Assembly: GCA_963801605.1 (NCBI GenBank)
Contig: CAWDFP010000007.1
Span: forward strand, 96,001-160,000
Length of the DNA stretch: 64,000 nucleotides
Direction of reading: 5' to 3'
DNA from: an uncultured candidate division Zixibacteria bacterium
Lineage (GTDB): Bacteria > Zixibacteria > MSB-5A5 > UBA10806
Both the position numbers and the translations under genes were made by a program. The notes under the pieces are model-generated. The model did no database searches and had not been told where the DNA came from. It saw only the letters and a program-made list of their open reading frames with translations. Below are positions 8,121 through 57,702 of the stretch, one piece after another (position 1 is the stretch's first letter; each line of letters begins with the position of its first letter).

Positions 8121-8496
8121 ATCATTTCCATATTCTCCGCTGGTGATGGAACATTTCGCCAATCCCCGCAACATGGGCGAGATTGCCGATCCATCCGCTG
8201 TTGGCGACGTAGGCAATCCTACCTGCGGGGATATGATGCGGCTCTATTTGAAAATCGAAAATGGCGTTATCGTAGATGCCAAATTCAAGACTTTCGGATG
8301 CGGAGCCGCCATCGCTTCATCGTCGATTTTGACCGAGATGCTGATCGGCAAAAAGGTTGAGGATGCGCTCAAGATTTCCAATGAGGCCGTTGCGGAGGCG
8401 TTGGGTGGGCTTCCGCCGGTTAAGATTCACTGTTCAGTAATGGCCGAAGAGGCCGTAAAAGCGGCTTTAGCGGATTTCGAGAAACGCAACAAATAG
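8113..8496 (+). CDS. iscU: Fe-S cluster scaffold IscU/NifU
   Basis: EHFANPRN, GNPTCGD, FGCGAAIASS, LPPVKIHCS; ATG 8113 after AGGAG. Confidence 0.95.
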   Translation: MNKSFPYSPLVMEHFANPRNMGEIADPSAVGDVGNPTCGDMMRLYLKIENGVIVDAKFKTFGCGAAIASSSILTEMLIGKKVEDALKISNEAVAEALGGLPPVKIHCSVMAEEAVKAALADFEKRNK

Positions 8497-8521
8497 GGCA
8501 GTTGAATCGCCGTCAAGCAAT

Positions 8522-8563
8522 AAAAAATGGGCCTCCTCGTTAAGGGAGGCCCAATGTTTATTT
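8522..8563. terminator. Bidirectional intrinsic terminator between iscU and the LVIVD gene
   Basis: AAAAAA-TGGGCCTCC...GGAGGCCCA-ATGTTTATTT between convergent genes. Confidence 0.75.
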
Positions 8564-8585
8564 ACGACAAGAATTTTTAGGGCGC

Positions 8586-10657
8586 TTACCTTGCTGGCGG
8601 ACAGGAAGGACAAGGCGTCGGCGACGGCCCGCCTTTGAAGAAAGATACCATATAGGTTACATCCAAACCGTTGAAGGAGCAGGAGGCGTTAACATCGCCG
8701 GATACAAACCAGGTGTTGCCCGGTGTACATTCGCAGGAATAGGGAGGCAGGGGCCCGCCCTTGAAGTAGGAGACGGAATAGGTAACATCAAGGCCGTTGA
8801 AGGTGGTCGAGCCATTGGCGTCGCCGGGGGTGTAGGCGCAAGGAGGGGGGCCAAAGTTTGTGCGCAAAATCATAAGAGAGTTATTATCTGCCACATAAAC
8901 ATAAGAGCCGGAAACAAATAAATCTTCGGCCCAGCCTGGCGTATCAAAGCTTCCCTGCAAGGTGGGGTTTGAGGGGTCGGAGATATTTACTATCTGAAGG
9001 CCGGCATAGTAATCGGCCACATATGCATAAGAGCCGGAAACAAATACCCCCGAGCTACAACTGGCGTAGCATAGCTCGCCTGCAGAGTTGGGTTGGAAGG
9101 ATCAGAAATATTTACTATCTGGAGGCCGGAAGACCAATCGGCCACATAGGCATAAGAGCCTAAAACGAATACTGCATAGGCAATGCCCGGCGTATCATAG
9201 CTCGCCTGCAAGGTGGGATTGGAAGGATCAGAGATATTTACTATCTGAAGGCCGGATTCGCCATCGGCCACATAGGCATAAGAGCTTGAAATAAATACGC
9301 CTAGGGCAGGGCCCGGCATATCATAGCTCGCCTGCAAAGTGGGGTTGGAAGGGTCGGAGATATTTACTATCTGAAGGCCGGAATAGTAATCGGCCACATA
9401 GGCGTAAGCGCCCGAAACGAATACTTCCTGGGCATAGCCTGGCGTATTACAGCTTCCCTGCGGGACAGGAGATGAGGGATCAGAGATATTTACTATTCGA
9501 AGGCCAGTGGAGCCATCGGCCACGTGGGCAAAGGAGCCTGAAACGAATACTCCATGGGCTTGGCCTGGCGTATCGTAACTTCCGCTTAAGGTCGGGCTTG
9601 AGGGATTGGTGATATTTACTATCTGAAGGCCTGAAGTGTAATCGGCCACATAAGCATAAGAGCCTGAAACGAATACTCCCTGGGCATAGGTTGGCGTATC
9701 AAAGCTTCCCTGCAAAGTGGGGTTTGAGGGGTTAGAGATATTTACTATCTGAAGGAAGAACCCATCGGCCACATAGGCATATGAATCTGAAACGATTACT
9801 CCCAAAGCATTGCCTGGCGTATCGAAGCTACCCTGCAAAGTGGGGCTTGAGGGATTTGAGATATTTACAATCTGAAGGATATAACCATCGGTCACATAGG
9901 CATAGGAGCCTGAAACGAATACTCCCCGGGCCTCGACTGGCGTATCATAGCTTCCCTGCAAGGTGGGAGTTGAGGGGTTAGATTTATTGACAATTTGAAG
10001 GCCGGAATAGCCATCGGCCACATAAGCGTAATTGCCGGAGACAAAGACGTCAGAGCCCTGTCTGGCGTATCATAGCTTCCCGCCAGGGTTGGGCTTGACG
10101 GATTGGAGATATTGATAATCTGAAGGCCGGATGTGTCATCGGCCACATAAGCGTAACTGCCGGATACAAAGACGCCATAAGCAAAGTCCGGCGTATCGAA
10201 GCTTCCGGCCAGTGTCGGGCTTGAGGGATTGGAAATATTGACAACCTGAAGGCCGGAAGAGCCAGCGGCCACATAAGCGTAAGAGCCGGAAACGAAAACG
10301 CCTAAAGCATCGATGGCGTAAGCTGCCGACCAGAGTCGGACTTGAGGGATTGGAGATATTTACTATCTGAAGTCCGAAAGAGGCATCAGCCACATAAGCG
10401 TAAGAGCCGGAGACATCAATTGCTTTTCCATAACCTTGAAGAAAATATTGGCTTACAAATACAGGCGCTGCAGGGTCTGAAATATCGAGGATAACAAGTC
10501 CATTTACAAAAGCGCAATAAGCATAATTGCCAACTACTTCGACATCAATGACGCCGGTCCAGAGGGTTGAGCCGACATATTCTACGTTTTGGGCGTGAAT
10601 ACCGGCCGCGCCGAGCAGCATCAAGAATACCGAAAAAATCAGAACAAAACGATTCAT
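8586..10657 (-). CDS. Secreted LVIVD-repeat protein with C-terminal dockerin-like domain (three apparent frameshifts at ~10321, ~10053, ~9048)
   Basis: Signal peptide MNRFVLIFSVFLMLLGAAGIHA; ~12 repeats of YAYVADxxSGLQIVNISxPSxPTLxGSYDT; C-terminal GDxNGSxxFNGLDVTY twice. Confidence 0.85.
8890..10420. repeat. Intragenic tandem repeats of ~123-126 bp (LVIVD units)
   Basis: GATATTTACTATCTGAAGG-like core recurs with 126-bp spacing (~8982, 9108, 9233, 9359, 9485, 9611, 9737...). Confidence 0.9.
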
Positions 10658-10794
10658 CTTTTCCTCCAAAGGAAAAAGCCAGGGCCAAATGGAACTCTTT
10701 AGTTTTTCTGCCAGTATCCCAAAAGAAGATAATAATAATACAGGCCCAATATAATAGAATTGGGCCTGAAAACAATCCAAAATTTAGGAACTGC

Positions 10795-12111
10795 CTATGG
10801 CGCCGGCGGACAGTCCGGGCAGGGTCCCGGTGTTGGCCCTCCCTTGAAATAAGCGACGCCGTAGGTAATATCAAGCCCGTTAAAGCTACAACTTCCATTT
10901 ATATCACCAGCCACAAACCAGGAATGACCCGTGGTGCATTCGCAGGAATATGATGGCGGTGGTCCGCCCTTGAAGTAACCCACTCCGTAGGTAACATCCA
11001 ACCCATTGAAGGTGTTACTGCCATTAATATCGCCAGTCACGTAAATACACCCGCTCGGCGGCTCATGCACCAAAAAATGGAATATAGATGCGCTGGATCT
11101 TTCAGGCGCATGGCCATTGAAAGCTACAACCTTCCAGTAATAGGTGGAATCATTAGGAACACAGAGCGGGGGAGACCAGGTGGTGTCGGAGAGCGTGTCT
11201 GAAATAAGGAAAGGATTGCTAAATGAAGGCGTAAAGTTAAGATATGCCAGGTAACGCACTGCATAGCCTGAATCGGTATCAATGGTGCTGTGCCAAGCAA
11301 CAGTAGTTGTGCATGTGGGAATCGTATCCCCATTGACGGGGGAAATCAGGGTGAAAGGTTCGAGATAGTATGTCATCGTCATGACATTTCGCTTAGCGCC
11401 CTGTAAAATCCTGTGGCCTGAATCCGATTGAACGAAAACAACCACATCGCAATTAGCCTGAACCAAAGGACTGGGACAGGAGAAGGCTTGTGATAAATTA
11501 ACAGTATCGCCGTTGGCAATTGTAAGGGCGATACCGCCGGAGTTAGGCGTTAAATCCCTGAATGTCTGATTGTGTATTGTCGTGCCGTTTGGCGACGAGC
11601 GATTTATGTTTGATTCTGTTATCGCAATGCGAACCTTTAAGTTGGTATTCGTAATTGGAGCAGTTGCGATAATCGTAATATTTGCATGGCCGGCGCGAGT
11701 TGTAGAATTGTAATCGCCGGCAATTTCAATATCAAGCGGCGAGCTAACTGCCAACTCTGTATTGATTCTCGATCCCCAGGTGCCGTGGGTGGCCCCAGCA
11801 TCAATATTTCCGTCAATGAACAAGCTTGGCGCATAATCATTGCCATAGTAGCTGTCTCTGGCAGTTATCTCGGAAATATTATATTGATAGTAAGGATCGC
11901 TTGAGTCCGGATAATATCGGTGGTAACGAATAAGAATTAGGCGATCAGGATGAAGAGTAGCTTGCTGATCTAGGACCAGATCAGCGGCGGGGCAAGATGG
12001 TCAGCACCAGTTGGTTAACATCTCCCCAACGACGATTCTTTCGGTGGCCAAAGCATGCCCGACAAGCAGGCAAAATCCCAAAGCAACAAACAATACCGCA
12101 GTCATCCTCAT
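10795..12111 (-). CDS. Secreted Omp28/thioredoxin-like protein with Ig/FN3-like and dockerin-like domains; predicted selenoprotein (UGA at codon 37), 438 aa
   Basis: ATG 12111 after GAGGT; signal peptide; EMLTNWC-TGA-PSCP...IRYH...DPY...YYG...APSLFIDG continues in frame into ORF 10795..11823; hairpin after UGA. Confidence 0.85.
11964..11985 (-). promoter_or_regulatory. Putative bacterial SECIS element
   Basis: mRNA GCUGAUCUG-GUCC-UAGAUCAGC: 9-bp stem with a G-first tetraloop following 24 nt after the in-frame UGA (12001-12003). Confidence 0.75.
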
Positions 12112-12399
12112 ACACTTACCTCTCTGTCTGTGTGAATCGGTCTATGGATCAATAAAAATAATTTAGACAAAAATTGAAATAAATTCGGGGCAAAAATCGA
12201 AGTGTTGTTAATCACGCAGCGGTCTCTTTATCATGCCAACGATTCAAGTATTTTTACAGAAGAAGCCAGGCAACCGCCTGAAGTCTTTTATATAGATACC
12301 ATATAAGATTATTTTGTCAAGTATTTTACAAGGCAAAAAATCAAAATTGTAAAGGGAGGAAATATGGAATCTACAGATGAAGGCGATTCGAATTTGAGA

Positions 12400-13407
12400 T
12401 CACCATCGCTGTTTTAGGAGATTAGACAACTGCGGTCCGGTCATATTTGATTCCAATACAACCGTTTTGCCCTGCTTGGAGATATTTAAGCTTTCGAGCA
12501 GCGCCCTATTCGGATCGTTAGGGGGCAGGAATGAGGCCAGCCCGCCACCAATCTGGAAAATGCTGGAAACAATCAGGGCGTTGCTTTCACTATCCATTCC
12601 CAGATAGCCATTTACGAGAAACCCGTTGCCACTTGGGGAGATCGACAGGCCAACCTCATCGAGATAATCAACGTAACCAAGAGCGGCGCGGGCAGTAGAT
12701 GATCGTATTTGGACGGTATCGGCCTTGACGAGATTCCGCATTTCGGGAGTTACCAGGATAAACATGTTGGCAAGTTTGGAGTCATTTGTCGAAAAATCCT
12801 GACTCAGACGCTGAAATGTATCGTATGTCGAGATGCCGGGCGCTTTACCGCCGGCAACATCGAGTATGCTTTTAATAATCTCCTCAGAGCCTCCGACCGC
12901 TAATCCTCCTCCCGGAAGCTGGCTGATACATTCGCCGTCTTTCGGGTTAAGCAGGTAGGCAGCGCCGGTCGACCACCATAGAAGCTTTTTATTGGAATAG
13001 TTTATCTCTTTCCAACCTTTGGATTTAATGGTTTGAAGATTGATTTTGTTATCGAGATTGCCGGTGATGATAAAAGCGCCATTTGAGGGAAGCTTTCGTG
13101 GTATGGCCGTTGTTTTTGATCCCTTAATCCAGCTTTTATCAAAAGGCATAAACATTACCAGGCGATCAATATTGGCAAGATCCAGATTCATCAATCCCAA
13201 ATAGTAGCTTAACGTGTTATTTCCCAGCATGGCCGTTTTGAGATCGGGATATTGCGCCACTTGTCCGGGTCTCATCCACAACACAACTTGCGCGTTGCCC
13301 GGAATAGGGGCGACTATCGTTTGTTGAGCCAAGGCTATACCGCCTGCGAGCGATATTACCGCCCAGGTCGTAAGTATAGAGATTAATCTTATTTGGTTGT
13401 TTTTCAT
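12400..13407 (-). CDS. Hypothetical exported protein
   Basis: 335-aa ORF with signal-peptide-like N-terminus (…GGIALA|QQ); no recognised domain. Confidence 0.8.
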   Translation of the reverse strand: MKNNQIRLISILTTWAVISLAGGIALAQQTIVAPIPGNAQVVLWMRPGQVAQYPDLKTAMLGNNTLSYYLGLMNLDLANIDRLVMFMPFDKSWIKGSKTTAIPRKLPSNGAFIITGNLDNKINLQTIKSKGWKEINYSNKKLLWWSTGAAYLLNPKDGECISQLPGGGLAVGGSEEIIKSILDVAGGKAPGISTYDTFQRLSQDFSTNDSKLANMFILVTPEMRNLVKADTVQIRSSTARAALGYVDYLDEVGLSISPSGNGFLVNGYLGMDSESNALIVSSIFQIGGGLASFLPPNDPNRALLESLNISKQGKTVVLESNMTGPQLSNLLKQRW

Positions 13408-13608
13408 TTTATTCACTTTCTATTTATTCATAATTTGCTCGAACTACTTAATGTTTGCGAAAAATGGCGGGATGTCAATAACGATTTTTTAATTAAATCA
13501 ATTTAATGATAAATCATAATTGGAGTTTGCTAATTAAAATGCGAAGGGGGGCTTATATTTATATTAATTCGGTTATTAAGCGATACCTGCATGGTAATAA
13601 CATTTTGC

Positions 13609-13637
13609 TTGTAATTTTGCGATTTTTGGGCTATAAT
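13609..13637 (+). promoter_or_regulatory. Sigma70-type promoter for the C25 peptidase gene
   Basis: TTGTAA-N17-TATAAT. Confidence 0.6.
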
Positions 13638-13774
13638 TAACGTGGTAATGATTATCTTCGATGCCTGTCGAGGTTGTGTTGATCAGAATTGGAAATTGCA
13701 GTAACGGAGTCTTTAATTTCGCAAGGTTTTCGCATTTTCATATAGTGGTACCTTAGTGGAGATTGGAGGTAGAT

Positions 13775-16700
13775 TTGAAAAGCTCTACACTTGTGTTTGT
13801 CATCCTGCTGGCCCTAACAGGGTTGGCGTACCCCGCTCAAACGGTTAACATAGGCCTAACGCCATCGGGGGCGGAGCTTCTCTTTCAGGATCAATCCGGA
13901 ATTGACCTGCGAGTAGATGTGGGGGAATTGAATTTCGACGAAATCAATACCTCTGAAGGGCAATTTATCTTGATCACGTCCGACGGATTGGGAAGCTCTC
14001 AGAATATAGGTGAGCCTAACCTGCCGATATTGAATCGTCTGATTTCAATCCCGTATGGATGCGAACTTCAGTGCGAAGTTACCAGTTCGGAATACCAGGA
14101 TATTTCGCTTTCAGATTTGAATTTGACCAATCCTATTATGCCCGTACAGCCGCCGCTCTCAAAAGGAGTTGATCCGGCGACGGTTCCTTTTGAATACAAT
14201 CGAAGCGTATACCAGCAGAGCGGCTATTATTCTCAGCAACTGGCGTCAGCTCAGATTCTTGGCGTGATGCGCGCGATGCGAATGGGATTGGTTTCAATAG
14301 CTCCGATACAATATAATCCGCTTGAAAATACTCTTCGAGTTTATAAAACGGTAACCGTCCATATAAGCTATCTTCATCCGGATTGGACAACCACCCGTCA
14401 AACCTGGGAGCGCCTTGATTCGCCAGTCTACTCAACAGTATATGGGCAGGTATTCAACTATGTTGGTCAAGAATCAATGCTGCTCGAAGACCATACCAGA
14501 TACCCGATAAAATATGTAATCGTTTCGCCGAGAATGTTCGAAACTCAGCTACAACCATTCATTCAATGGAAAATTAAAAAGGGTTTTAAGGTCGTAGTCG
14601 GTTATACGGATGTCATTGGGACGACCAATACAGCCATAAAAACATGGATTCATAATTTGTACGATGCCGGCACTCCGGACGACCCGGCGCCATCGTTTGT
14701 GCTGCTTGTCGGTGATGCTCAGCAGATTCCGCCGTTTTCATTCAGTACTCACATCTCCGATCTCAGCTTTTGCGAATTTACCAATGATACTTATCCCGAG
14801 ATATATTATGGGCGTTTCTCAGCGCAGACGGTCGCGCAACTGACTCCTCAAATAGACAAGACTCTGGAATATGAAAAATATCTGATGCCCGATCCCAGCT
14901 ATCTGGGCAGGGTTACTATGATCTCCGGCGTCGATGCTAATTACGCTCAGCATCAAGGCAATGGGCAGATCAACTATGGAACCCGCTATTATTTCAATTC
15001 AGCTCATGGAATCACGTCCAATACCTGGCTTTATCCGGCCTCAAACGGTAATGTGGAAGCCGCCATTATCGCGACGATAAATAGCGGCGTAAGCTTCATC
15101 AACTACACCGCTCACGGCTCTCATGATGGTTGGGCCGATCCATCGCTATCAACATCCAACGTCAACGCGCTTACTAATGCGCATAAATATACATTAGCGG
15201 TGGGAAATTGTTGTTTGACGAATACCTTTGGAACCGATTACTCCGACCCGTGCATGGGCGAAGCCTGGCTACAGGGAGCTAACAAAGGAGCTATCGGCTA
15301 TATCGGGGCATCCAACAACAGCTACTGGGATGAGGATTATTATTGGGGAGTTGGATGGCATACCGTAATTGACAACGGTCCCGACTATGATCCGACTCGT
15401 CTGGGCGCTTATGATGGCGTTTTCCATACTCATGGCGAACCTGTCAGCCGTCATTATGTGACCAACGATGCCATGCTTTATTGCGGCAATTTGGCGGTTA
15501 CCCAATCGGGTTCAAGTATGATTGCCTACTACTGGCAAATTTATCATCTGATGGGCGACCCCTCGGTAATGACTTATCTCGGCCTCCCAACGACTAATAA
15601 TGTAGTGCATACGGGGTCGATGCTCTTTAGCGGCACGACATATACAGTTCAAGCCGATCCCGGCTCATACGTGGGTATCTCTCTCGATGGTGTCCTGCAT
15701 GGGGCGTCATATATTGATTCATCAGGATCGGCTAACATTACGCTTGATCCATTCAGCGGCCCGGGTACAGCGGATATCGTGGTAACCGCTCAAAACCGGA
15801 TTCCCTATACCGGAACGATTCAACTAATTGCGCCATCCGGCCCGTTTGTAGTATTCGACAGCAGCAGCGTAAACGATGCCACCGGCAACAATAATGGGAT
15901 CATCGATGCCAGCGAGCATATAATTTTGGGTGTACGTCTGAAAAATGTGGGACCTGATACGGCCCACGCTGTTTCGGCGACCCTGGCCTGTACAGATACT
16001 TTTGTAACCGTAACTGACAATACCGAATCGTATGGTGACATTATTGGCAATAACGGAACCGTAAACAGGCCGAGCGCTTTTGCTTTCAATGTTTCAGGAA
16101 GAACTCCGGAAAATCACAATATTTCATTCCAGATCACAATGACGGATGATGCCGCTCATAACTGGAACGGCACAATTTCCCTGCCCGTTCATTCGCCGGC
16201 GCTAAGTTATGCGTCGATCCAGATAAATGACGGTTCCGGCAATAATAACGGGGCGCTCGATCCCGGCGAAACCGCTCAGCTGGTGGTAACGCTTCAAAAT
16301 AACGGTTCCGGCCAGGCTTTTGCAATTACGGGTATCCTTTCCGAAAACGATACATATATCAGTTTAGGCGATGCCAACGGTACTTTCGGAAATATACTTG
16401 CCGGAGGAAACGGTAATAATTCCGGCGATCTATTCTCCATAACTGCCAGTTCATCTTGCCCGCTGGGTCATACCTTTAATTTAATTCTGGCATTAACCGG
16501 AGCCGACGGATATGTAACATCCGTGCAGATTCCCATGGTAGTAGGGATTAGAGTGCCGATTTATACGGATGATTTTTCGACCAATCGAGGCTGGACCGGT
16601 CTTGGCGGTCTTGGGCAATGGACTATTGGAGCCTGCACGGGCGGCGCCGGCAACGATACTCATGGCGGTCCCGATCCCTCTGTCGATCACAGCCCGACAA

Positions 16701-17762
16701 GCGACAATAAAGTACTGGGAACAGATCTGACCAGCGGAACCGGAGGGGATTACGATTCCAATTTGACGCAAACCTATTGGGTAACATCCCCAACAATAGA
16801 CTGCTCCAATTACAGCGGTGTTCAATTGCAATTCTACCGTTGGCTGGGGGTGGAACGCGTATTATATGATACCGCATATCTTCAGGCTTACAACGGCAGC
16901 GCCTGGGTAACTCTATTCCGCAATGATTCCACGCTGGATGAATCTGCCTGGATTTTGCGAACGCATAATATTTCATCGTATGCCGATCATAATGCAAATT
17001 TCAAGATCAGATTTGGAATCGGCGGCTCAGATCACGCCTGGCAGTTCTGCGGTTGGAATATCGATGATATTTTAATCAACGGATATCAGGAAGTTGCTCC
17101 GGGGAATCCTGATCTTTCACTTTCGATAAATAGTCTGGCAGATACCCTGGTTCAGGGCGATTCGGCCTCACACTCGTTCAAAATATACAATGGGGGAACG
17201 TCCGATCTGCGGATAACATTTAACTGCACGGCCGCATGGGTTAGATATTCGGGTAATCAAATTACGGTACCGGCTAATGACAGCGCCAATTATTCGTTGA
17301 CGCTTCGTTCCGCCAGCCTTTCGCCCGGGCCGTTTGCGACTATCGTTAACCTATGTCTCCAACGATACCGGTAATGCCTCGGGGTCAATCCCGATCAGTT
17401 TGTTGGTCAGGCCGGTTGCTCCGCCTCAGTGTGAATATATCCTGGGTGACGTTAATGGAAATAACGTCTTTAATGGTTTGGATGTAACTTACGGCGTTGG
17501 TTACTTCAAAGGTGGAATCCCTCCGCCATATAGCTGCGAATGTCCGGCGGGAAGCGGTAATTACTGGTTTGTCGCTGGCGATATTAACGGCAGCTGCTCA
17601 TTTAATGGCCTGGATGTAACTTTTATGGTAGCTTATTTCAAGGGCGGCGGCGTTTTAACCACCTGTCCTGATTGTCCATCGTCAGGAATATTGAAAGCTC
17701 CGCAACAACCTATCTTAGTACCTACCGCAAACCAAACCAATGGGAGTGGATCGTCGGAATAG
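13775..17762 (+). CDS. Gingipain-like C25 cysteine peptidase (propeptide, catalytic, Ig-like domains) with C-terminal dockerin-like domain; frameshift at ~17341
   Basis: TTG start after GGAGGT; signal peptide; GEPNLP propeptide; FVLLVGD, YYGRFSA, NYTAHGS (His), GNCC (Cys), YHLMGDPS; the 17334..17762 fragment carries the dockerin-like repeat. Confidence 0.9.
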
Positions 17763-18625: not shown

Positions 18626-20619
18626 ATGAAATGTTTTAAGACAACGAGATCGAAGACTCTGTTGTTGTTATTGGTGTCTGCGATTATAGTTGATCTCATA
18701 TCGAGCGGCTGTGGACTTAAAAAGCCGCAAGCTCCATCATGGATGACAACCTGGGATATTCCCCTGGCTAACCGAACTTTCACTATAGCGGAAATCCTCG
18801 ATGATTTGCATAGCACCAATATCGTTTATAACGATAGCGGTAATCCCACAATAGAGTTAACTCAGAACCTCGATACCACAACCGTGGCGCAAAGCTTGAA
18901 GGTTGAATCCACAAGCATGAATCTTTTGGATTCAGTTGGTATCCTGGAGGTAGCTCCACCATCGAACGTGACGTCGTTTACAAATCTCAGCGACGTCATC
19001 GATATTAGTTTGGGATTCGTCCCGCCGGCGCCATTTGAAACCATCCAACCGCTGGGCAGAATCGATAATTTTACCTGGGCGCATATCGAACAGGGGTTAT
19101 TGGATGTTACTTTTCATAATGCGCTGGAAATCGATCTGGATACCTTAATTGTCACCCTGATCGATTCTGCCGATATGCATCAAATAGGCACTCTGGTATT
19201 CGAGAATGGATTGCCTTATCTTGCGACAGAAACCCGTCAGGTCGATATTTCCGGGCAAACAATTTCCAATTGCATTTTTATGCGTTGCCACGGCCATACG
19301 CCCGGAGGGCTGCTTATCAATGCCGGCTCTCAGCGTCTCGAATCAGAGGTATCGTTTCCGAATAATTTACTGGTATCATCGGCGTGCGCCCGAATAGAGC
19401 AATTTACCCGCGTTAAAGAGGGTAGATTTGAAATTGATGATTCAACCAAAATAATATCGTCGGTTGTCTATCAGGGAAACCTCAATCTGCAAGTAGCCAA
19501 TTATTCCAACTTACCGTTTGATGTCAGACTGCATTCACCAAATTTCAAATGGCAGGGATCGGATTTTAATATCAGCCGCAGGCTGGAACCACATAATCTT
19601 ACGGAAGTCACCATTGATATAGCGGGTTATGTTTTTACGCCCGACCAAAACTCCGATTCGCAGTTTGTGACAGTCGAAATGATTAACACTATGGCACCGG
19701 CGGATAACCAGGCAATATGTTTTCAATTCGTCGGATAGCTTAGCCCTTCATGTTGACGTATCACAAATATATTTAGAATCGGTCAGCGGCCGGATTAAGC
19801 CGGTTCCAATCACCATGGATACGGTTACGAGATCGCTCGATCTTCCCCGAGGGTATGGAGCAAACCGCCCTTACTCATGCCAATTTGAGTCTCAATTTGA
19901 GCAATAACTGCATGGTCGCGGCCTATACCGAAATTACGGTAACGGGGAATGGCCGTACCCTTCATCTGAACGGCCTTGTTCCGGGCAAAAACTCGTTTGA
20001 CGCTCCGCCCGCAGTCACTACGCTCAGCGCCAATCCGGAGGAGCTATTAAGCTTTTTCGATCCGCCCCCCGGCGAACTGGTTATTTCCGGTAACGGGATA
20101 ATCAATCCGGATTATGAGGTGGTGACATTAAGGCGGAACGATAGTTTCTGGGGCGAATTCACATTTCAATCGGCTTTAGCCTTTGCGGTAAGGGATACCG
20201 TTGAGCTTGAGCCGGAAATCTCGAAAATTGAACCGAATACAAAGAACAGTGAATTCAATTACGGAGAATTTACTGCGGACTTGACCAATCATCTTCCTGT
20301 CGGCGCCCTGGTGACATTCTTCATTGGCTGCAGTTCGGATTCCACGTTATACAGCGATCCGAATACTATCAGACTGGGGCCATATCAATTGTCGGCGGCA
20401 CTTACCGACGCTAACGGGTTTGTCTCCGAACCGGTAAATTCCACAATTTCGGATTCGTTGGGGACCGAGGCTTTACGTTTGTTTGAGCGCGATTCTCTTT
20501 TTGTCAGTCAGCGAGTTGAGCTTCTGCCGACGCCGGCGTCAGGGGTTGTTGTCACGGGTTCGGATAATATTCGTGTCGGCGCCAGAGCCAGAATTCAAAT
20601 GCTACTTGGCGGGGATTAA
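18626..20619 (+). CDS. Large beta-rich lipoprotein of unknown function (two apparent frameshifts at ~19711 and ~19846)
   Basis: Lipobox-like SSGC; the intervening segment reads QYVFNSSDSLALHVDV...SLDLP in a third frame, joining ORFs 18626..19738 and 19855..20619. Confidence 0.75.
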
Positions 20620-20628
20620 GGGGAAAAT

Positions 20629-21891
20629 ATGAAATTACGGATATTAATTTGGGGACCGATATTTCTCAGCCTGATCGCGTTCCACCTGGCCTGGAGCAGG
20701 GGAGAGAACAATCCACGCGCGGTTGGCATGGGCGGCGCCTATACAGCCCTGGCGCGGGATCTCGACGCTCCCGATTGGAATCCGGCCAATCTGGGATTAT
20801 CGGACGGTAAGGGATTTACAATAAATTTCTTTAATCTGGGCATGCGTGCAAAAAATAACAGCTTTTCGCTCGACGATTACGAACGGTATAACGGCAAGTT
20901 TTTGACTGATTCAGATAAAGATGAAATCATAAATTCGATTCCCTCAACCGGTCTGGGTTTGGACCTGACCGCGGAAGCCTCGGCATTTAATTTTTCAATC
21001 GGAAATTTCGCGGCTACTTACAAGGCAATCGGAGTGACCAGTTTCTCCATAGATAGAGATCCGTTCAAGCTGATGCTGCTGGGAAATGCAGTCGTACATG
21101 AAGTTTCGGTATCGGATACGAGGGGCGAAGCGTTTGCCTTAGGAGATTTTGGCCTTTCTTACGGACAAGCAATTCGTCGCTGGCCGGGAGGAGAGCTATC
21201 GGTTGGGGCGAGCGTTCATTATCTCAGGGGAATTGCTTATGCAGGAATATCCGAAGCTCTCGGCGGGGTGATAACCACCGATACCGGTTTCGTCGGCTCC
21301 GGGCAGATGATCTATCACACGTCCAGGGGCGGCGATGGATATTCCTCGGATCTCGGCTTAGCCGTAAGATTTTCCGATGATTGGTTTTTCTCGGCGGCCT
21401 GGCAAAATGTATCGAGCAAGATCAATTGGCGAAAAGATAATGAGGAATATCGGATGTGGTTTGAAATGAAACCCCTGACCGCGGAGAGCATGCTTGATGA
21501 AAACCGCGCCGATTCAATGGTGACCTCAAATGATACATCCTACAACTATGGAGCGTTCTCAACGCGATTAGCGCCAGCAATCCGGATGGGATTGGCCAAA
21601 AAATGGAAACGGTTCGCCTGGTCTTTAGACTGGGAGCAGAATCTTTTCAGCGGCCCGGGAACCGGGGTCAATCCGAGGATTGCCAGCGGGCTGGAATACA
21701 AGCCCTGGCGTCATTTGCCGCTCAGAACCGGATTAGCGTTCGGGGGCAATCAGGGATCGATATATTCAGTGGGATTGGGATTAATTTTTGGGCCATATAA
21801 TCTCGATTTAGGCCTGGCCAATTCAGGGTCGCCATCGCCGACACATACCAAGGGGGTTCGGTTAGCTTTTGCAATGAGTCTGCGATTTTAA
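20629..21891 (+). CDS. Outer-membrane beta-barrel protein (DUF5723 / PorV-FadL-like)
   Basis: Signal peptide, PRAVGMGGAYTALA...WNPANLG hatch motif, amphipathic strands, terminal Phe. Confidence 0.75.
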   Translation: MKLRILIWGPIFLSLIAFHLAWSRGENNPRAVGMGGAYTALARDLDAPDWNPANLGLSDGKGFTINFFNLGMRAKNNSFSLDDYERYNGKFLTDSDKDEIINSIPSTGLGLDLTAEASAFNFSIGNFAATYKAIGVTSFSIDRDPFKLMLLGNAVVHEVSVSDTRGEAFALGDFGLSYGQAIRRWPGGELSVGASVHYLRGIAYAGISEALGGVITTDTGFVGSGQMIYHTSRGGDGYSSDLGLAVRFSDDWFFSAAWQNVSSKINWRKDNEEYRMWFEMKPLTAESMLDENRADSMVTSNDTSYNYGAFSTRLAPAIRMGLAKKWKRFAWSLDWEQNLFSGPGTGVNPRIASGLEYKPWRHLPLRTGLAFGGNQGSIYSVGLGLIFGPYNLDLGLANSGSPSPTHTKGVRLAFAMSLRF

Positions 21892-47796: not shown

Positions 47797-49304
47797 TTAC
47801 TTAATAAATTCAACCTTAAGACACTTCTCAAGCATCTCTCCTTTCCGCCCGATGAAGTAAGTCCCCGAAGAAAGCGGCTGGTTATCAGTTCCCTTACCAT
47901 CCCAAATTATTCTTTGACTTCCCTTCTCAAAAGGGTATTGCCTTATTATTCTGCCCCCTATATCGTAAATATTTAATATGCCGGGTTCATTGGAAATAAT
48001 GGATATTGTAATAGAGGAATTAAAGGGGTTGGGATAGGCGGAGAGGGAAAAATCCGTTGGAGGAGATAAATCCGGCTCATCCACACTATCTGTAGAATCA
48101 GGAGTGAACTTTTTATAGTATATTTCACTTGCTCCGCTTTCCAATTCTTCCCGCCACGCAACATGGATTTTTCCATTATCAAGCGAAACTGAGGGATCAT
48201 AAGACTCACCTATTGTATTAGTGATTCTTTCTTCACCCTGCCAGGTTTGGCCGCTATTATTGCTTCTATTAAAGAAGATTTCATGCGCACCTTCATCATA
48301 GAAGCGCATATCAGACCAGACCATAATTAGAGTATCGGCCACAAAATCAATTTGGGGGTACCAAGCGGTATGATTATTAGTAGCTTGATATTCACCAGGC
48401 CAGCTAAGACCTCCATCGTTTGAAATAGCGGCAAAGATATCTCCATGAAATGAGTACTGAAAATACCTGAAATCCAAATACCCGGTTGTCAATCTGCTCT
48501 GTTTGTTTGTTACAGGCAAGGCATGCATCTGCAGACCAGTTAGGGGTATTGGGAGAAATCCAGATAGTATCAGACCAACTCCTTCCGGCATCGGTGCTTC
48601 TATAGCCAAAAACGTGACACTCATGCCTACTTGAATCGGCAGTTCCAGCCCATGCAATAAGTATTGACCCATGGCAATAAATCATCTTAATCGGCTGCGA
48701 TTCTATGGCAATAGGATGTCCGACTGTTATCTCATTGCTCCAAGATGGCCATAATTATAGGAATATGTGGCCCTAATAGGGACTCAAGGCCGGTAGAGTC
48801 ATTGTTATAACTGTAATAGACCAGAAATATAGAATCCCCTTTAACCGCTGAGACCGGATAGGTAAAATGGTTGGGATTGTTCGTATAGACGTAAGAAGGG
48901 GCGCTCCAGGTGGCTCCTCCATCAGATGACTTTCTTATTCCAATAGAGGAGATGTTCATAAGAGAATCGCCATCAATCCAGCTGACCAGCAAGCCCCTTT
49001 CAGTCGGATTCAGAGTGGGAAGAGCTCCCCTATGACCAGGTACATTGAGATTAATAATATTGACCCCAGGTATTACCGCCATCGGTGCTTCTAATATAGG
49101 AGACATTACTAAGCCCCATGTGAAACCAAACCACATGCACCGTATCTCTCTGGCAATTACCTGCGGGCTGATCTCATTGCCCCTATAGGTAAGGCGCACG
49201 TTTTCAGACCAGCCGGCATGGGCGGTATTTGCAGCGCATAATAATTGCAGAGATATAAAACTAAGTATGCACAGGTATGATTTTTGGGGGTTACAAATTC
49301 TCAC
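47797..49304 (-). CDS. Secreted BNR/Asp-box (sialidase-like) propeller protein with FlgD/T9SS-type C-terminal domain; several frameshifts
   Basis: Asp-boxes SSDGGATW, STDAGRSW, SNDGGLSW, SNNSGQTW in different frames; C-terminal FSLSAYPNPFN...YDIGGR...WDG...SGTYF. Confidence 0.75.
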
Positions 49305-55529: not shown

Positions 55530-57702
55530 TTATTTCAAAAGCACCATTTTATTGGTTTCTGTCCTCTCCCCTGCCTTGAGGCGGTAGAAGTAGACTCCTG
55601 ATGGCTTGTCAACCGCATTCCAGATTATGGAATGCTCTCCGGCCTCCATGATGCCCCGATTGCAGCGTCTCAATCTTCCGGCCCAAAATATCGAAGATAT
55701 CGAGGCTGACATCGGATGATATTGGCAATGTGTATGAGATTGTGGTTTGAGCATTAAAGGGGTTGGGGTAGGATTGGGAGAGGGAAAAAGCTGTAGGTAT
55801 AAAACTTTCACGAATATCTGTTGAATTGAAATGTAAAGTCATTAAGGCATTATCAGCAGCAATATAGATATAATTATTAAAGCCACACATATTTCTTACG
55901 CCGATTGGATATTCCGTCACAGTAAATGGCGAAGCGGGATTTTCCACATTAACAGCCAGAAGATCGCTTACATAAGCCACATTGTTTTCAACGAAAATAT
56001 TGCTGAATCCCTCTATTCCAAATTCGCCAAATTCAAAAAAGCCAAGGAAATTAAAGGATGATGGGTTACTGATATCAACTATTTCCAGCGCTCCCCTCGT
56101 ATTACCCATAGGCAACGCCCTTTCAGTCGCTATATAAGCATAATTATCTTTTACAAACATATTCAATGGACAATAAGGGCTTATATGGGACGTGTATATA
56201 CCCGAAAAAATTGGATTGTGGTGATCTTCAACGTTTACAATAATAATTCTATAGCCGTATCGCGAGGCGGATTGTACTAGATAAGCATAATTGTTATTTA
56301 CATGAATACTAGCCGTAGGAATATCAAAATGGTCGGGATATGCTCCGACTCTCTGAGGATTAGTAGGATTGCTAATATCGACAATAACCATGGTATCCTG
56401 TTTCTGCAAATAGGCATAAAAACCGGATATGTCGAAACAAGCTATTCCAGTGCTGTCAAGAATTGTTCCGATTGGTTCCGGCTGATTAATATTGGAAATA
56501 TCCACTATTTTAAGGCCTGCAATATCGTCTTTAAAATAAAGGTAATTGCCTTCTATTTTGAGCCGTGCAATGGATCCATCAGTAGATAAGTTAGACACTA
56601 GAATTGGATTTTCAGAATTCGAAATATCGAAAATTTTTAATCCCAGATTACCATTTGCAACAAATAAATATTGGCCTTGAATTTGGCAATCATAAACATA
56701 ATCTGTTTCATATCTGCCACTCAAAACAGGGTTATTAGGATCACTTGGATTCAATATATAAATCCCAAGTCTTTCATGAGGAGCAAATACCATGTTCTGA
56801 TCACAGGCGACATACTGCTGATTATAAAAACTACCTGGCATCTGATAGTGGCCGCAAAGCAAAGGATTGGATAAATTGGCGATATTTACAATTTGAATTC
56901 CGTTCCTATAAGGTTCGATTCCTGCCGCAAGATAGGCATATTGGCCATTAACAGAAACATTTTCAGAGTATTCAAAAGGCGTGTTGCCCAATAAAATTGG
57001 GAGGGATGGATTGGAAATATCAAGTATTGTCAATCCTGCATTGTAATCTGCGATAAACGCGATATTTTCTCTTATCGTAATTCCGTGTGCCCCTCCGGGA
57101 GTATCATAATAGCCCAATACAAGAGGACTGAATGGGTTACTAATATCAATGGTTGCCATAAATCCATCCAACATGGAGAAAGCATAATTTCCGGAAACCG
57201 CGAGGTCGTATGGCCAGCCGGTCACCGCGCATGAGCCGGACAATGTTGGATTGGCGGGATTTGACACGTCGATTATAAGGAATCGCGAAGATAGATCTTG
57301 CGTATAAACATAATTCCCTGATACTGCGAGATGAAAACCATGAGCATGGAACGAATCATATCTTCCAACCTCAAAGGGCGATGAAGGATTTGTGACATCA
57401 ATGATATATAAATAGTCCATTAATAGATAAGCATAGTTGTTCATCAATTCTATATAGGGACCATGAACGTCCCTTTGCAAACCTGGTAAATACAGCTCAC
57501 TTAAAAGTGACGGATGGGAATAATCTGTAATGTCAATTATAACTAACCCATCATAGAATGCGCAATATGCGAAATTATCTCTTATTTTAATTTCGCTGCA
57601 TCCACTAAATAAAGCTGATGATGAATAATCCAAGCTTTGCGTAAATGATGTATTGGACAGGTATATTAATATTAAAAGTGCTAATATCGCCAGTTTTTTC
57701 AT
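55530..57702 (-). CDS. Secreted LVIVD-repeat protein with FlgD/T9SS-type C-terminal domain (frameshift at ~55655)
   Basis: Signal peptide, repeats of xAY...LxIxDISNPxxP; FSLSQSYPNPFN...IFDILGRKI...SGVYFYRL...KMVLLK; AT-rich. Confidence 0.85.

Follow-up and report, generated by a model that had tools for sequence, protein, structure and literature searches.

Type I dockerins of the clostridial cellulosome (PF00404; PDB entries 4DH2, 5NRK, 3UL4, and 6KG9) consist of a segment of about 22 residues that occurs twice in tandem and is made up of a 12-residue calcium loop (D1, N3, D/S5, N9, D12) followed by a helix, and they sit at the C termini of secreted enzymes. Here we describe a variant of this module from a 64,000-nucleotide stretch of an uncultured Zixibacteria genome, referred to below as the window (positions 96001 to 160000 of contig C7, genome G000; 3.06 Mb in 14 contigs, 87% complete). 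Three genes of the window end in a module of about 85 residues that has the same tandem arrangement of calcium loop and helix, and the same C-terminal place on secreted proteins, as the clostridial dockerins. Unlike those dockerins, it adds six conserved cysteines, a nine-residue hairpin between the repeats, and a C-P-x-C-P end, and it falls below the Pfam cutoff. The host differs as well, being a diderm with a type IX secretion system (T9SS) and having no glycoside hydrolase family among the proteins that carry the module. We consider it probable, from sequence comparisons and predicted structures, that this six-cysteine dockerin docks some fifty secreted proteins onto cohesins of the genome's own surface proteins.

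A second parallel comes from Candidatus Stygibacter of the Cloacimonadota, for which a cellulosome-like complex has been inferred in silico (Williams et al. 2021, PMC8542988). The two phyla are related, both organisms are uncultured, and both systems are known from sequence alone. According to the accessible text of that paper, Ca. Stygibacter shares with the Zixibacteria genome the presence of dockerins on C25 and S8 peptidases with signal peptides, together with a cohesin scaffold that ends in a C-terminal sorting domain. There the scaffold is a single scaffoldin of 3,755 residues with CBM2 and CBM3, and the cargo also includes GH18 and GH57, whereas the Zixibacteria genome has several small cohesin proteins, no carbohydrate-binding module (CBM) that we could see, and no glycoside hydrolase family among its 51 cargo open reading frames (ORFs). 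Cysteine-rich dockerins are not mentioned in the accessible portion of the same paper (PMC8542988). Our literature search found no paper pairing Zixibacteria with a dockerin and, in the parts of the literature that were accessible, no description of a natural cysteine-braced bacterial dockerin. Within the reach of those sources, the combined architecture of cohesins, dockerins, and sorting domains is already known in silico from Cloacimonadota, and the six-cysteine, order-specific form of the dockerin is new. To this we add the pairwise co-variation of the cysteines, a search of 21 genomes for DsbA, DsbB, and VKOR with an accompanying parity test, evidence that the module was replaced genus by genus, and a phyletic comparison of four cohesins.

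A type I dockerin with six cysteines

The three copies of the module in the window lie at 8589 to 8843 on the minus strand, in an LVIVD beta-propeller protein (stop codon at 8586 to 8588); at 10798 to 11052 on the minus strand, in an Omp28-like protein (stop codon at 10795 to 10797); and at 17430 to 17684 on the plus strand, in a C25 peptidase. The first two are strictly C-terminal, and the third is followed by a proline-rich tail of 25 residues (GILKAPQQPILVPTANQTNGSGSSE; 17685 to 17759, plus strand, with the stop codon at 17760 to 17762). When the three tails are aligned, they are 66 to 70% identical in pairs and share 51 invariant columns, including all six cysteines, the two GDxN..NGLD loops, two FKGG motifs, and the CPxCP end, while the bodies of the proteins belong to the unrelated Pfam families LVIVD, Omp28, and Peptidase_C25. 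A first-pass annotation, made by a model from the letters of this DNA, had reported one shared C-terminal module with six conserved cysteines on three unrelated proteins; alignment and Pfam bear this out, and the coordinates it gave were right within a few bases. Recent gene conversion is rejected as the source of the likeness, given the divergence of the copies at the DNA level (mean column identity of 76%). Many of the DNA differences fall within codons whose residue is kept, and the likeness of the three modules is therefore best read as selection on the protein rather than a recent copy.

To count the module across the genome, a hidden Markov model (HMM) of the three window tails was run against 55,964 six-frame ORFs no shorter than 30 residues, with a domain accepted at an E value of 1e-5 or less. 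It was found in 51 ORFs, so that chance does not explain the shared tails, and in nearly all of them it stands at the very C terminus or just before a short tail. Full-length six-cysteine copies make up 36 of the 51, and the rest grade into forms with two, three, or no cysteines. These simpler forms have the look of ordinary dockerins (G-D-A-N-G-x-G-x-x-N-G-L-D-V-V-Y-L-V-N-Y-L-K-G-G-P) and reach the Pfam family Dockerin_1. Among 86 distinct modules of G000 and related genomes, 47 have a tail of 7 to 35 residues behind the CPxCP end; these tails are proline-rich, follow a loose pattern (G-[IL]-L ... P-[LIM]-[VI]-x-P), and were found to contain no transmembrane segment or hydrophobic anchor.

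By profile comparison and by predicted structure, the module is a dockerin, specifically a six-cysteine variant of the type I form. When the 36 six-cysteine copies were compared in hhalign with eight of the simpler dockerins from the same genome, seven of which reach Dockerin_1 themselves, the two groups matched with a probability of 99.9% and an E value of 2.9e-33, and the sole gap was the nine-residue insertion between the repeats. The two forms are clear homologues that share the loop-2 cysteine and one C-terminal cysteine. Of the eight simpler dockerins compared, seven have two or three cysteines and a G-x-C end and one is free of cysteine; they lack the hairpin, the N-terminal cysteine, and the second C-terminal cysteine, and the genome holds about ten such copies versus about forty with six cysteines. 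Put the other way, the six-cysteine form is the simple form with a hairpin (Y-S-C-E-C-x-x-G-x-x-W) of nine residues set between the repeats, an N-terminal cysteine, and a second C-terminal cysteine.

Comparison with solved structures gave the same answer. A profile of the 36 copies matched 18 PDB sequences at an E value of 1 or less, the best of them a solved type I dockerin (E value of 5.5e-5); at least 15 of the 18 bear the name of a dockerin or of a cellulosomal enzyme with a dockerin, the others being further proteins of cellulosomes. In an AlphaFold2 model of the module (mean predicted local distance difference test score of 88.4), two helices follow the two loops (residues 23 to 33 and 65 to 75), and the linker forms a small hairpin. 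All 27 of the Foldseek matches listed for this model (of 34) are dockerin-containing entries, with probabilities of up to 0.99. In a VIA-align comparison with 48,161 chains, 19 rows had a Z score of at least 2 and the top 14 were dockerins, the best with a Z score of 9.3 and a root mean square deviation of 1.9 Å over 68 of 70 residues, while unrelated rows had Z scores of 2.4 or less. Furthermore, the calcium-loop residues at loop positions 1, 3, 9, and 12 (D14, N16, N22, and D25 in the first repeat; D56, N58, N64, and D67 in the second) are invariant or at least 90% conserved among the 36 copies. Both the tandem loop-helix arrangement of a type I dockerin and, in the predicted model, its fold are present, and the duplicated calcium-loop and helix unit proposed in the first-pass annotation holds up on sequence profiles as well as on predicted structure.

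Some results tell against this identification. The Foldseek E value of the model is only 0.05, which is weak, and the Dockerin_1 cutoff of 22.9 bits is missed by all three window copies (19.8 bits for the copy of the C25 peptidase and no match for the other two) and passed by only 3 of the 36 six-cysteine copies. On the window proteins, NCBIfam has no match to the module either.

Within the phylum, strong matches to the six-cysteine module are a property of one order. We sampled 201 genomes, with 10 from the window's own family, 8 from its sister family, and 182 from outside both. All 10 and all 8 of the family members had strong matches, making 18 of 18 for the order, while 44 of the 182 other genomes had a match at an E value of 1e-10 or less, with best values between 4e-19 and 1e-10. 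Among the sampled genomes, the six-cysteine form is order-specific within Zixibacteria, and full counts in three relatives gave 43, 48, and 42 copies. When 185,579 species genomes were scanned with a pattern of the module, 44 loci came up, mostly in Zixibacteria metagenome-assembled genomes (MAGs; bin119, bin38, MFD05942.bin.1.318, Ww191, and RBG_16_53_22), with the remaining loci in two MAGs labeled "Ignavibacteria" and "uncultured bacterium." Among 1.84 billion representative proteins there were 323 matches to the module at an E value of 1e-30 or less and 1,314 at 1e-10 or less, and a public protein collection supplied 244 candidates of 188 to 599 residues, 160 of which matched at 1e-10 or less. 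One representative protein of 720 residues (P0017) matches the module profile in 13 stretches and may be made largely of dockerin repeats. A precomputed PF00404 assignment exists for 2 of the 120 relatives listed, and nearly all source names read "hypothetical protein" or describe the cargo only; the six-cysteine module is unannotated in public records.

The sequence of the module also changes from genus to genus. Divergent genera have versions of their own on all sampled cargoes, such as F-N-I-A-D-I-I..F-S-K-L-K-T-G in genome G186, E-L-T-D-V..Y-R-G in G080, and a four-cysteine form in G028. Mean identity among modules is 0.55 to 0.74 within a genome versus 0.28 to 0.47 between divergent genera, and in a tree of modules the sampled copies form genome-specific clades (8 of 8, 7 of 8, and 9 of 10) with starred support and long branches. 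It appears that in each divergent genus a variant of its own took the place of the module on every sampled copy, as would be expected if many tags track one lineage-specific receptor. Within a genus, moreover, the helix residues are the same in both repeats, which suggests a surface for protein-protein recognition.

Cargo, cohesins, and a proposed surface display

The proteins that carry the module are diverse, and peptidases are prominent among them. By a crude test, an obvious Sec signal peptide is present in 27 of the 51 ORFs, many of the others being fragments. Pfam assigns four tagged ORFs to peptidase family C25 (including the one in the window), two to S8, and one each to M14 and M28. 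Other cargoes are four LVIVD propellers, two Kelch proteins, an InhA-like MAM domain protein, one cupredoxin, one sortilin/BNR protein, one Omp28-like protein, and large proteins of Ig- or cadherin-like type; 17 of the 48 tagged ORFs scanned with Pfam (the window's three were scanned separately) matched no family. Pfam matched neither a glycoside hydrolase nor a CBM family in any of the 51 tagged ORFs or in the cohesin proteins; two ORFs match DUF4962. A cellulosome is recognized by a cargo made up mainly of glycoside hydrolases and by a CBM-bearing scaffoldin, and neither was found here. From three unrelated secreted proteins, the first-pass annotation had projected a protein-degrading or redox surface assembly rather than a cellulosome. 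The genome-wide count shows the tag on many unrelated secreted cargoes, and the wealth of peptidases and the lack of a glycoside hydrolase match agree that this is not a cellulosome; the redox part of the projection has just two cargoes behind it, the Omp28-like C-U-x-x-C protein and the cupredoxin.

No cohesin lies within the window, as the same annotation had noted when it proposed a wider search, and a Pfam search finds cohesins elsewhere in the genome. The family PF00963 gave eight matches at an E value of 1 or less, three of them above the cutoff, and scans of the proteins gave four above the cutoff; most of the cohesins belong to proteins whose C terminus is a T9SS type A sorting domain. 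On contig C6, one locus (the A/B locus) encodes a 709-residue protein in which one cohesin match is Pfam-significant (51.6 bits) and two are weaker, and which also has an internal cysteine-free dockerin and a T9SS type A sorting domain, along with a B-type protein of 274 residues that has one cohesin and a sorting domain. The same locus encodes a protein of 594 residues with a sorting domain and a weaker cohesin-like module, and it adjoins three large dockerin-bearing genes. Elsewhere in the genome, proteins of 767 and 887 residues each combine a cohesin, a dockerin, and a sorting domain. The weaker cohesin-like modules (the N-terminal and middle ones of the 709-residue protein and those of the 594-, 253-, and 767-residue proteins) are sub-threshold Pfam matches or readings by eye, and an iterated HMM search of the genome's ORFs with four cohesin seeds recovered the seeds only. 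The 253-residue ORF (G000:C6:282000-282800), which we read as cohesin-like and which has no Pfam match, runs into a dockerin that goes on in another frame and differs in its cysteine pattern (C-C-L-C); an indel may have disrupted what was an adaptor protein.

A free cohesin of 193 residues, encoded in the region G000:C6:1730000-1735000, consists of a signal peptide and one cohesin and has no anchor. Its model matches type I cohesins (E value of 2e-10, TMt of 0.79). In this design it is like the single-cohesin proteins of Ruminococcus flavefaciens (PDB entries 4N2O and 4WKZ), which likewise have a signal peptide, one cohesin, and no anchor. Both entries are among the fold matches of the Zixibacteria model. 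The likeness is one of fold only, and the Zixibacteria gene stands in a conserved operon behind a DUF1573 gene, which it follows in all 6 of the orthologous loci examined. The conserved order in all six genomes is a cysteine-synthase-like gene, a DUF1573/OS_HP2-family gene, and the free cohesin, and in G000 the two small genes overlap by 4 bases.

Four cohesins were compared with the module for their distribution across the phylum. The cohesin of the 274-residue type occurs throughout the window's family (10 of 10 genomes, at 42 to 51% identity), in 7 of 8 genomes of the sister family, and weakly in 36 of the 182 others; for the third cohesin of the 709-residue protein, these counts are 10 of 10, 5 of 8, and, again weakly, 13 of 182. 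The free cohesin is found in 10 of 10, 4 of 8, and only 1 of 182. The cohesin of the 887-residue protein, present in 6 of 10, 1 of 8, and 22 of 182 genomes, including 12 of 12 in another family, has a distribution that does not track the six-cysteine module. In addition, identity of the free cohesin is 41 to 52% only in the four genera with the F-N-G-L-D-V-T-Y dockerin subtype and drops to 27 to 30% in genera with diverged dockerins. On these patterns, the free cohesin is the best co-varying candidate for a partner and the A/B locus the best anchored candidate.

An argument can be made that a dockerin fold need not imply a cohesin. Roughly ten Pfam-detectable cohesin matches face 51 dockerin ORFs, and Peer et al. 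are said to have described, in 2009, many dockerin-like modules outside cellulosomes with no known partner. The module could then be a calcium-binding domain whose ligand is a cell-surface glycan, lipopolysaccharide, an S-layer component, or a substrate. Ratios of dockerins to cohesins of about this size, roughly 51 to ten, are nevertheless usual in cellulosomes. Furthermore, the order in which the six-cysteine form occurs has conserved both the A/B-locus cohesins and the family of the free cohesin, and the cohesin locus directly adjoins large dockerin-bearing genes. We therefore regard a non-cohesin ligand as unlikely.

The genome also has the means to anchor such cohesins. PorU (701 bits) and SprA (707 bits) are present along with 115 matches to sorting domains, and judging from these components the T9SS is complete enough to anchor cohesin proteins. 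The T9SS type A sorting domain (TIGR04183/PF18962) is, like the module, a C-terminal tag on many secreted proteins, and C25-like peptidases and propellers carry either one. This likeness raises the question of whether the module is mainly a tag for export or sorting by outer-membrane machinery, read by the T9SS directly or via cohesin-bearing T9SS substrates, rather than a means of lasting docking. The module occupies the extreme C terminus of about fifty exported proteins, just where 115 others have sorting domains; the same cargo families occur with either tag, and one ORF of 1030 residues, whose C25/PorU-like match is weak, has a T9SS sorting domain at its end; no recognizable type II secretion system (T2SS) was seen, both secretins lying in pilus-type operons; and about half of the modules bear an extra short tail. 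The predicted model of the module, however, has helices and calcium loops of a dockerin rather than the beta-sandwich of a sorting domain, and TIGR04183 and Por_Secre_tail do not match the module (for Por_Secre_tail, there was no match at an E value of 1e-4 or less in the 48 scanned tagged ORFs or in the three window proteins). Nor is the module known to be cleaved or lipid-linked. Cohesin candidates exist and co-occur with it, and the helix residues shared by its repeats suggest protein-protein recognition, so that we judge a pure sorting role to be rather improbable.

The docking of tagged proteins onto surface cohesins would proceed in a few steps. Cargo would be exported by Sec, and the dockerin would fold in a calcium-dependent manner, its fold braced by three co-varying pairs of cysteines that may act as disulfides or as metal ligands. 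It would then plug noncovalently into the cohesins of the A/B locus proteins (709 and 274 residues), of the free 193-residue protein, or of both. Attachment of the cohesin proteins to the outer membrane would fall to the T9SS and PorU, and the outcome would be a peptidase-rich surface display.

Several observations weigh against this model of docking. The free cohesin, which is the best co-varying family, has no anchor, and the phyletic pattern of the cohesins is suggestive only, as related genomes are not independent. Around the two secretin genes, both of which lie in operons of the PilM-PilN-PilO-secretin type (G000:C7:338700-352000 and G000:C6:996000-1012000), no Gsp-type T2SS operon was seen, and the tagged proteins also lack a sorting domain; the route across the outer membrane has to be read from a genome that is 87% complete. 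With no recognizable T2SS and no sorting domain on the tagged proteins, there is room for the idea that they hitchhike on the T9SS. They would fold in the periplasm, plug into cohesin proteins that have a sorting domain (or pass by way of a free periplasmic cohesin), and ride the translocon as passengers. We rate this as quite improbable, and the same holds for the idea joined to it, that the cysteines brace the module without DsbA and DsbB, perhaps as a metal cluster or through the dockerin-tagged C-U-x-x-C selenoprotein candidate.

If the binding of these dockerins by the genome's cohesins holds, an abundant lineage of sediment and soil displays peptidase-rich enzymes on its outer membrane. 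Such a system would join cohesin-dockerin assembly, as in the cellulosomes of Gram-positive bacteria, with the T9SS anchoring of Bacteroidota, two subjects that are usually studied apart, and it would be relevant to the breakdown of protein-rich detritus by this lineage. The genus-specific versions of the dockerin could also yield orthogonal cohesin-dockerin pairs.

The six cysteines

We examined the co-variation of the cysteines in 93 distinct modules from G000 and its relatives, a sample in which the events are few and the genomes related. C1 and C2 were both present in 78 modules, both absent in 11, and discordant in 4. For C3 and C6 the corresponding numbers were 72, 16, and 5, and for C4 and C5 they were 81, 4, and 8. 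The four-cysteine family of G028 keeps C1, C2, C4, and C5 only, and most simple dockerins keep C4 and one C-terminal cysteine. In the AlphaFold2 model, DSSP bridges residues 58 and 82, which lie beside C4 and C5. Gain and loss in pairs is the pattern expected of three disulfides (C1-C2, C3-C6, and C4-C5), but the disulfide state of these cysteines is not secure.

Other results speak against disulfide bracing. Pfam searches for DsbA, DsbB, and VKOR found none of them in the 21 genomes of the order, of which 16 have a completeness of 90% or more and a contamination of 5% or less, while the controls were positive; Thioredoxin_4 was not found in G000. Likewise, the remaining cysteine-containing ORFs that look exported have no bias toward even numbers of cysteines, with 111 of 244 even (45.5%) versus 438 of 869 (50.4%) among those without a signal peptide, a comparison that depends on a crude signal-peptide heuristic and a frameshifted assembly. 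Given that neither DsbA, DsbB, or VKOR nor an even-cysteine bias was found, the cysteines may be metal ligands. In the first-pass annotation, they had been called probable disulfides: the co-variation in three pairs stands on the side of that claim, and the search for DsbA, DsbB, and VKOR and the parity test stand against it. A Zn(Cys)4 site formed by the C-x-C and C-x-x-C motifs is disfavored, since the G028 family, in keeping C1, C2, C4, and C5, loses one cysteine from each knuckle. A binuclear cluster with six cysteine ligands, in which C4 and C5 bridge the metals, would fit the same pattern of loss.

That six conserved cysteines recur on 40 to 50 exported copies in each fully counted genome, with no DsbA, DsbB, or VKOR found, is a small puzzle of its own. 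It is very improbable that the module is merely a stabilizing end cap that binds calcium or metal and has no partner: it is small, cysteine-rich, and always terminal, and its cysteines may bind metal, since no Dsb system was found, but the genus-specific replacement of all sampled copies and the high homogeneity within genomes are hard to explain without a shared partner, and cohesins are present in the genome. The six-cysteine dockerin is a natural version, compact and probably very stable, of a module that is widely used in protein engineering.

The window genes and their neighborhood

The module-bearing genes of the window are affected to different degrees by apparent errors in the assembly. 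The LVIVD-repeat propeller gene (8586 to 10780, minus strand; Pfam LVIVD) is spread over four overlapping ORFs with apparent indels between them. Its N-terminal ORF opens with the signal-peptide-like sequence MNRFVLIFSVFLMLLGAAGIHAQ, and its final ORF, which bears the module, runs from 8586 to 9020 on the minus strand. The C25 peptidase gene, which is gingipain-like (13763 to 17762, plus strand; Propeptide_C25, Peptidase_C25, and Peptidase_C25_C), has an apparent frameshift at about 17320 to 17350. The catalytic ORF (13763 to 17374, 1203 residues) and the module ORF (17334 to 17762) are in different frames, and the shift lies near a cccggg run. In a homologue from the same genus (genome G106), the C-terminal region (C100:8725-9777) and the module (8407 to 8667) fall within one open frame of 1187 residues, and on the strength of this intact frame we read both the LVIVD locus and the C25 locus as single genes with apparent assembly indels. 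Altogether the apparent frameshifts number three for the LVIVD gene and one for the C25 gene, and elsewhere in the genome several more ORFs with the module are no longer than short fragments, which suggests indel errors in the assembly. For 8500 to 12400 of the window, a search of sequencing runs listed none.

The Omp28-like gene (10795 to 12111, minus strand) has 438 codons when an in-frame TGA is read through, and it begins with a signal-peptide-like N terminus. Its module-bearing ORF is 10795 to 11823 on the minus strand. The TGA, a candidate selenocysteine codon at 12001 to 12003 (minus strand), is located near the N terminus in a C-U-x-x-C motif (W-C-U-P-S-C in full). Readthrough extends the match to NF045500 (Omp28_seleno) to positions 34 to 272 of 377, at 53 bits, which is far under the 200-bit cutoff. 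The first-pass annotation had called this protein a selenoprotein outright. The in-frame TGA and the longer match on readthrough agree with that call, the low score does not, and from its sequence the protein is plausibly a thioredoxin-motif selenoprotein candidate that bears a dockerin.

Between the Omp28-like and C25 genes, an ORF of 338 residues with a signal-peptide-like start (12400 to 13416, minus strand) has no match in Pfam or NCBIfam. Downstream of the C25 gene, three co-directional ORFs occupy 18626 to 21891 on the plus strand; the first two, of 370 and 254 residues, belong to no family, and the third is a DUF5723 protein of 420 residues that looks like an outer-membrane barrel. Farther along, the window holds two T9SS type A sorting-domain matches, at 47851 to 48039 (minus strand; C7:143851-144039) and at 55657 to 55770 (minus strand; C7:151657-151770), and the two types of C-terminal tag are thus found in one neighborhood.

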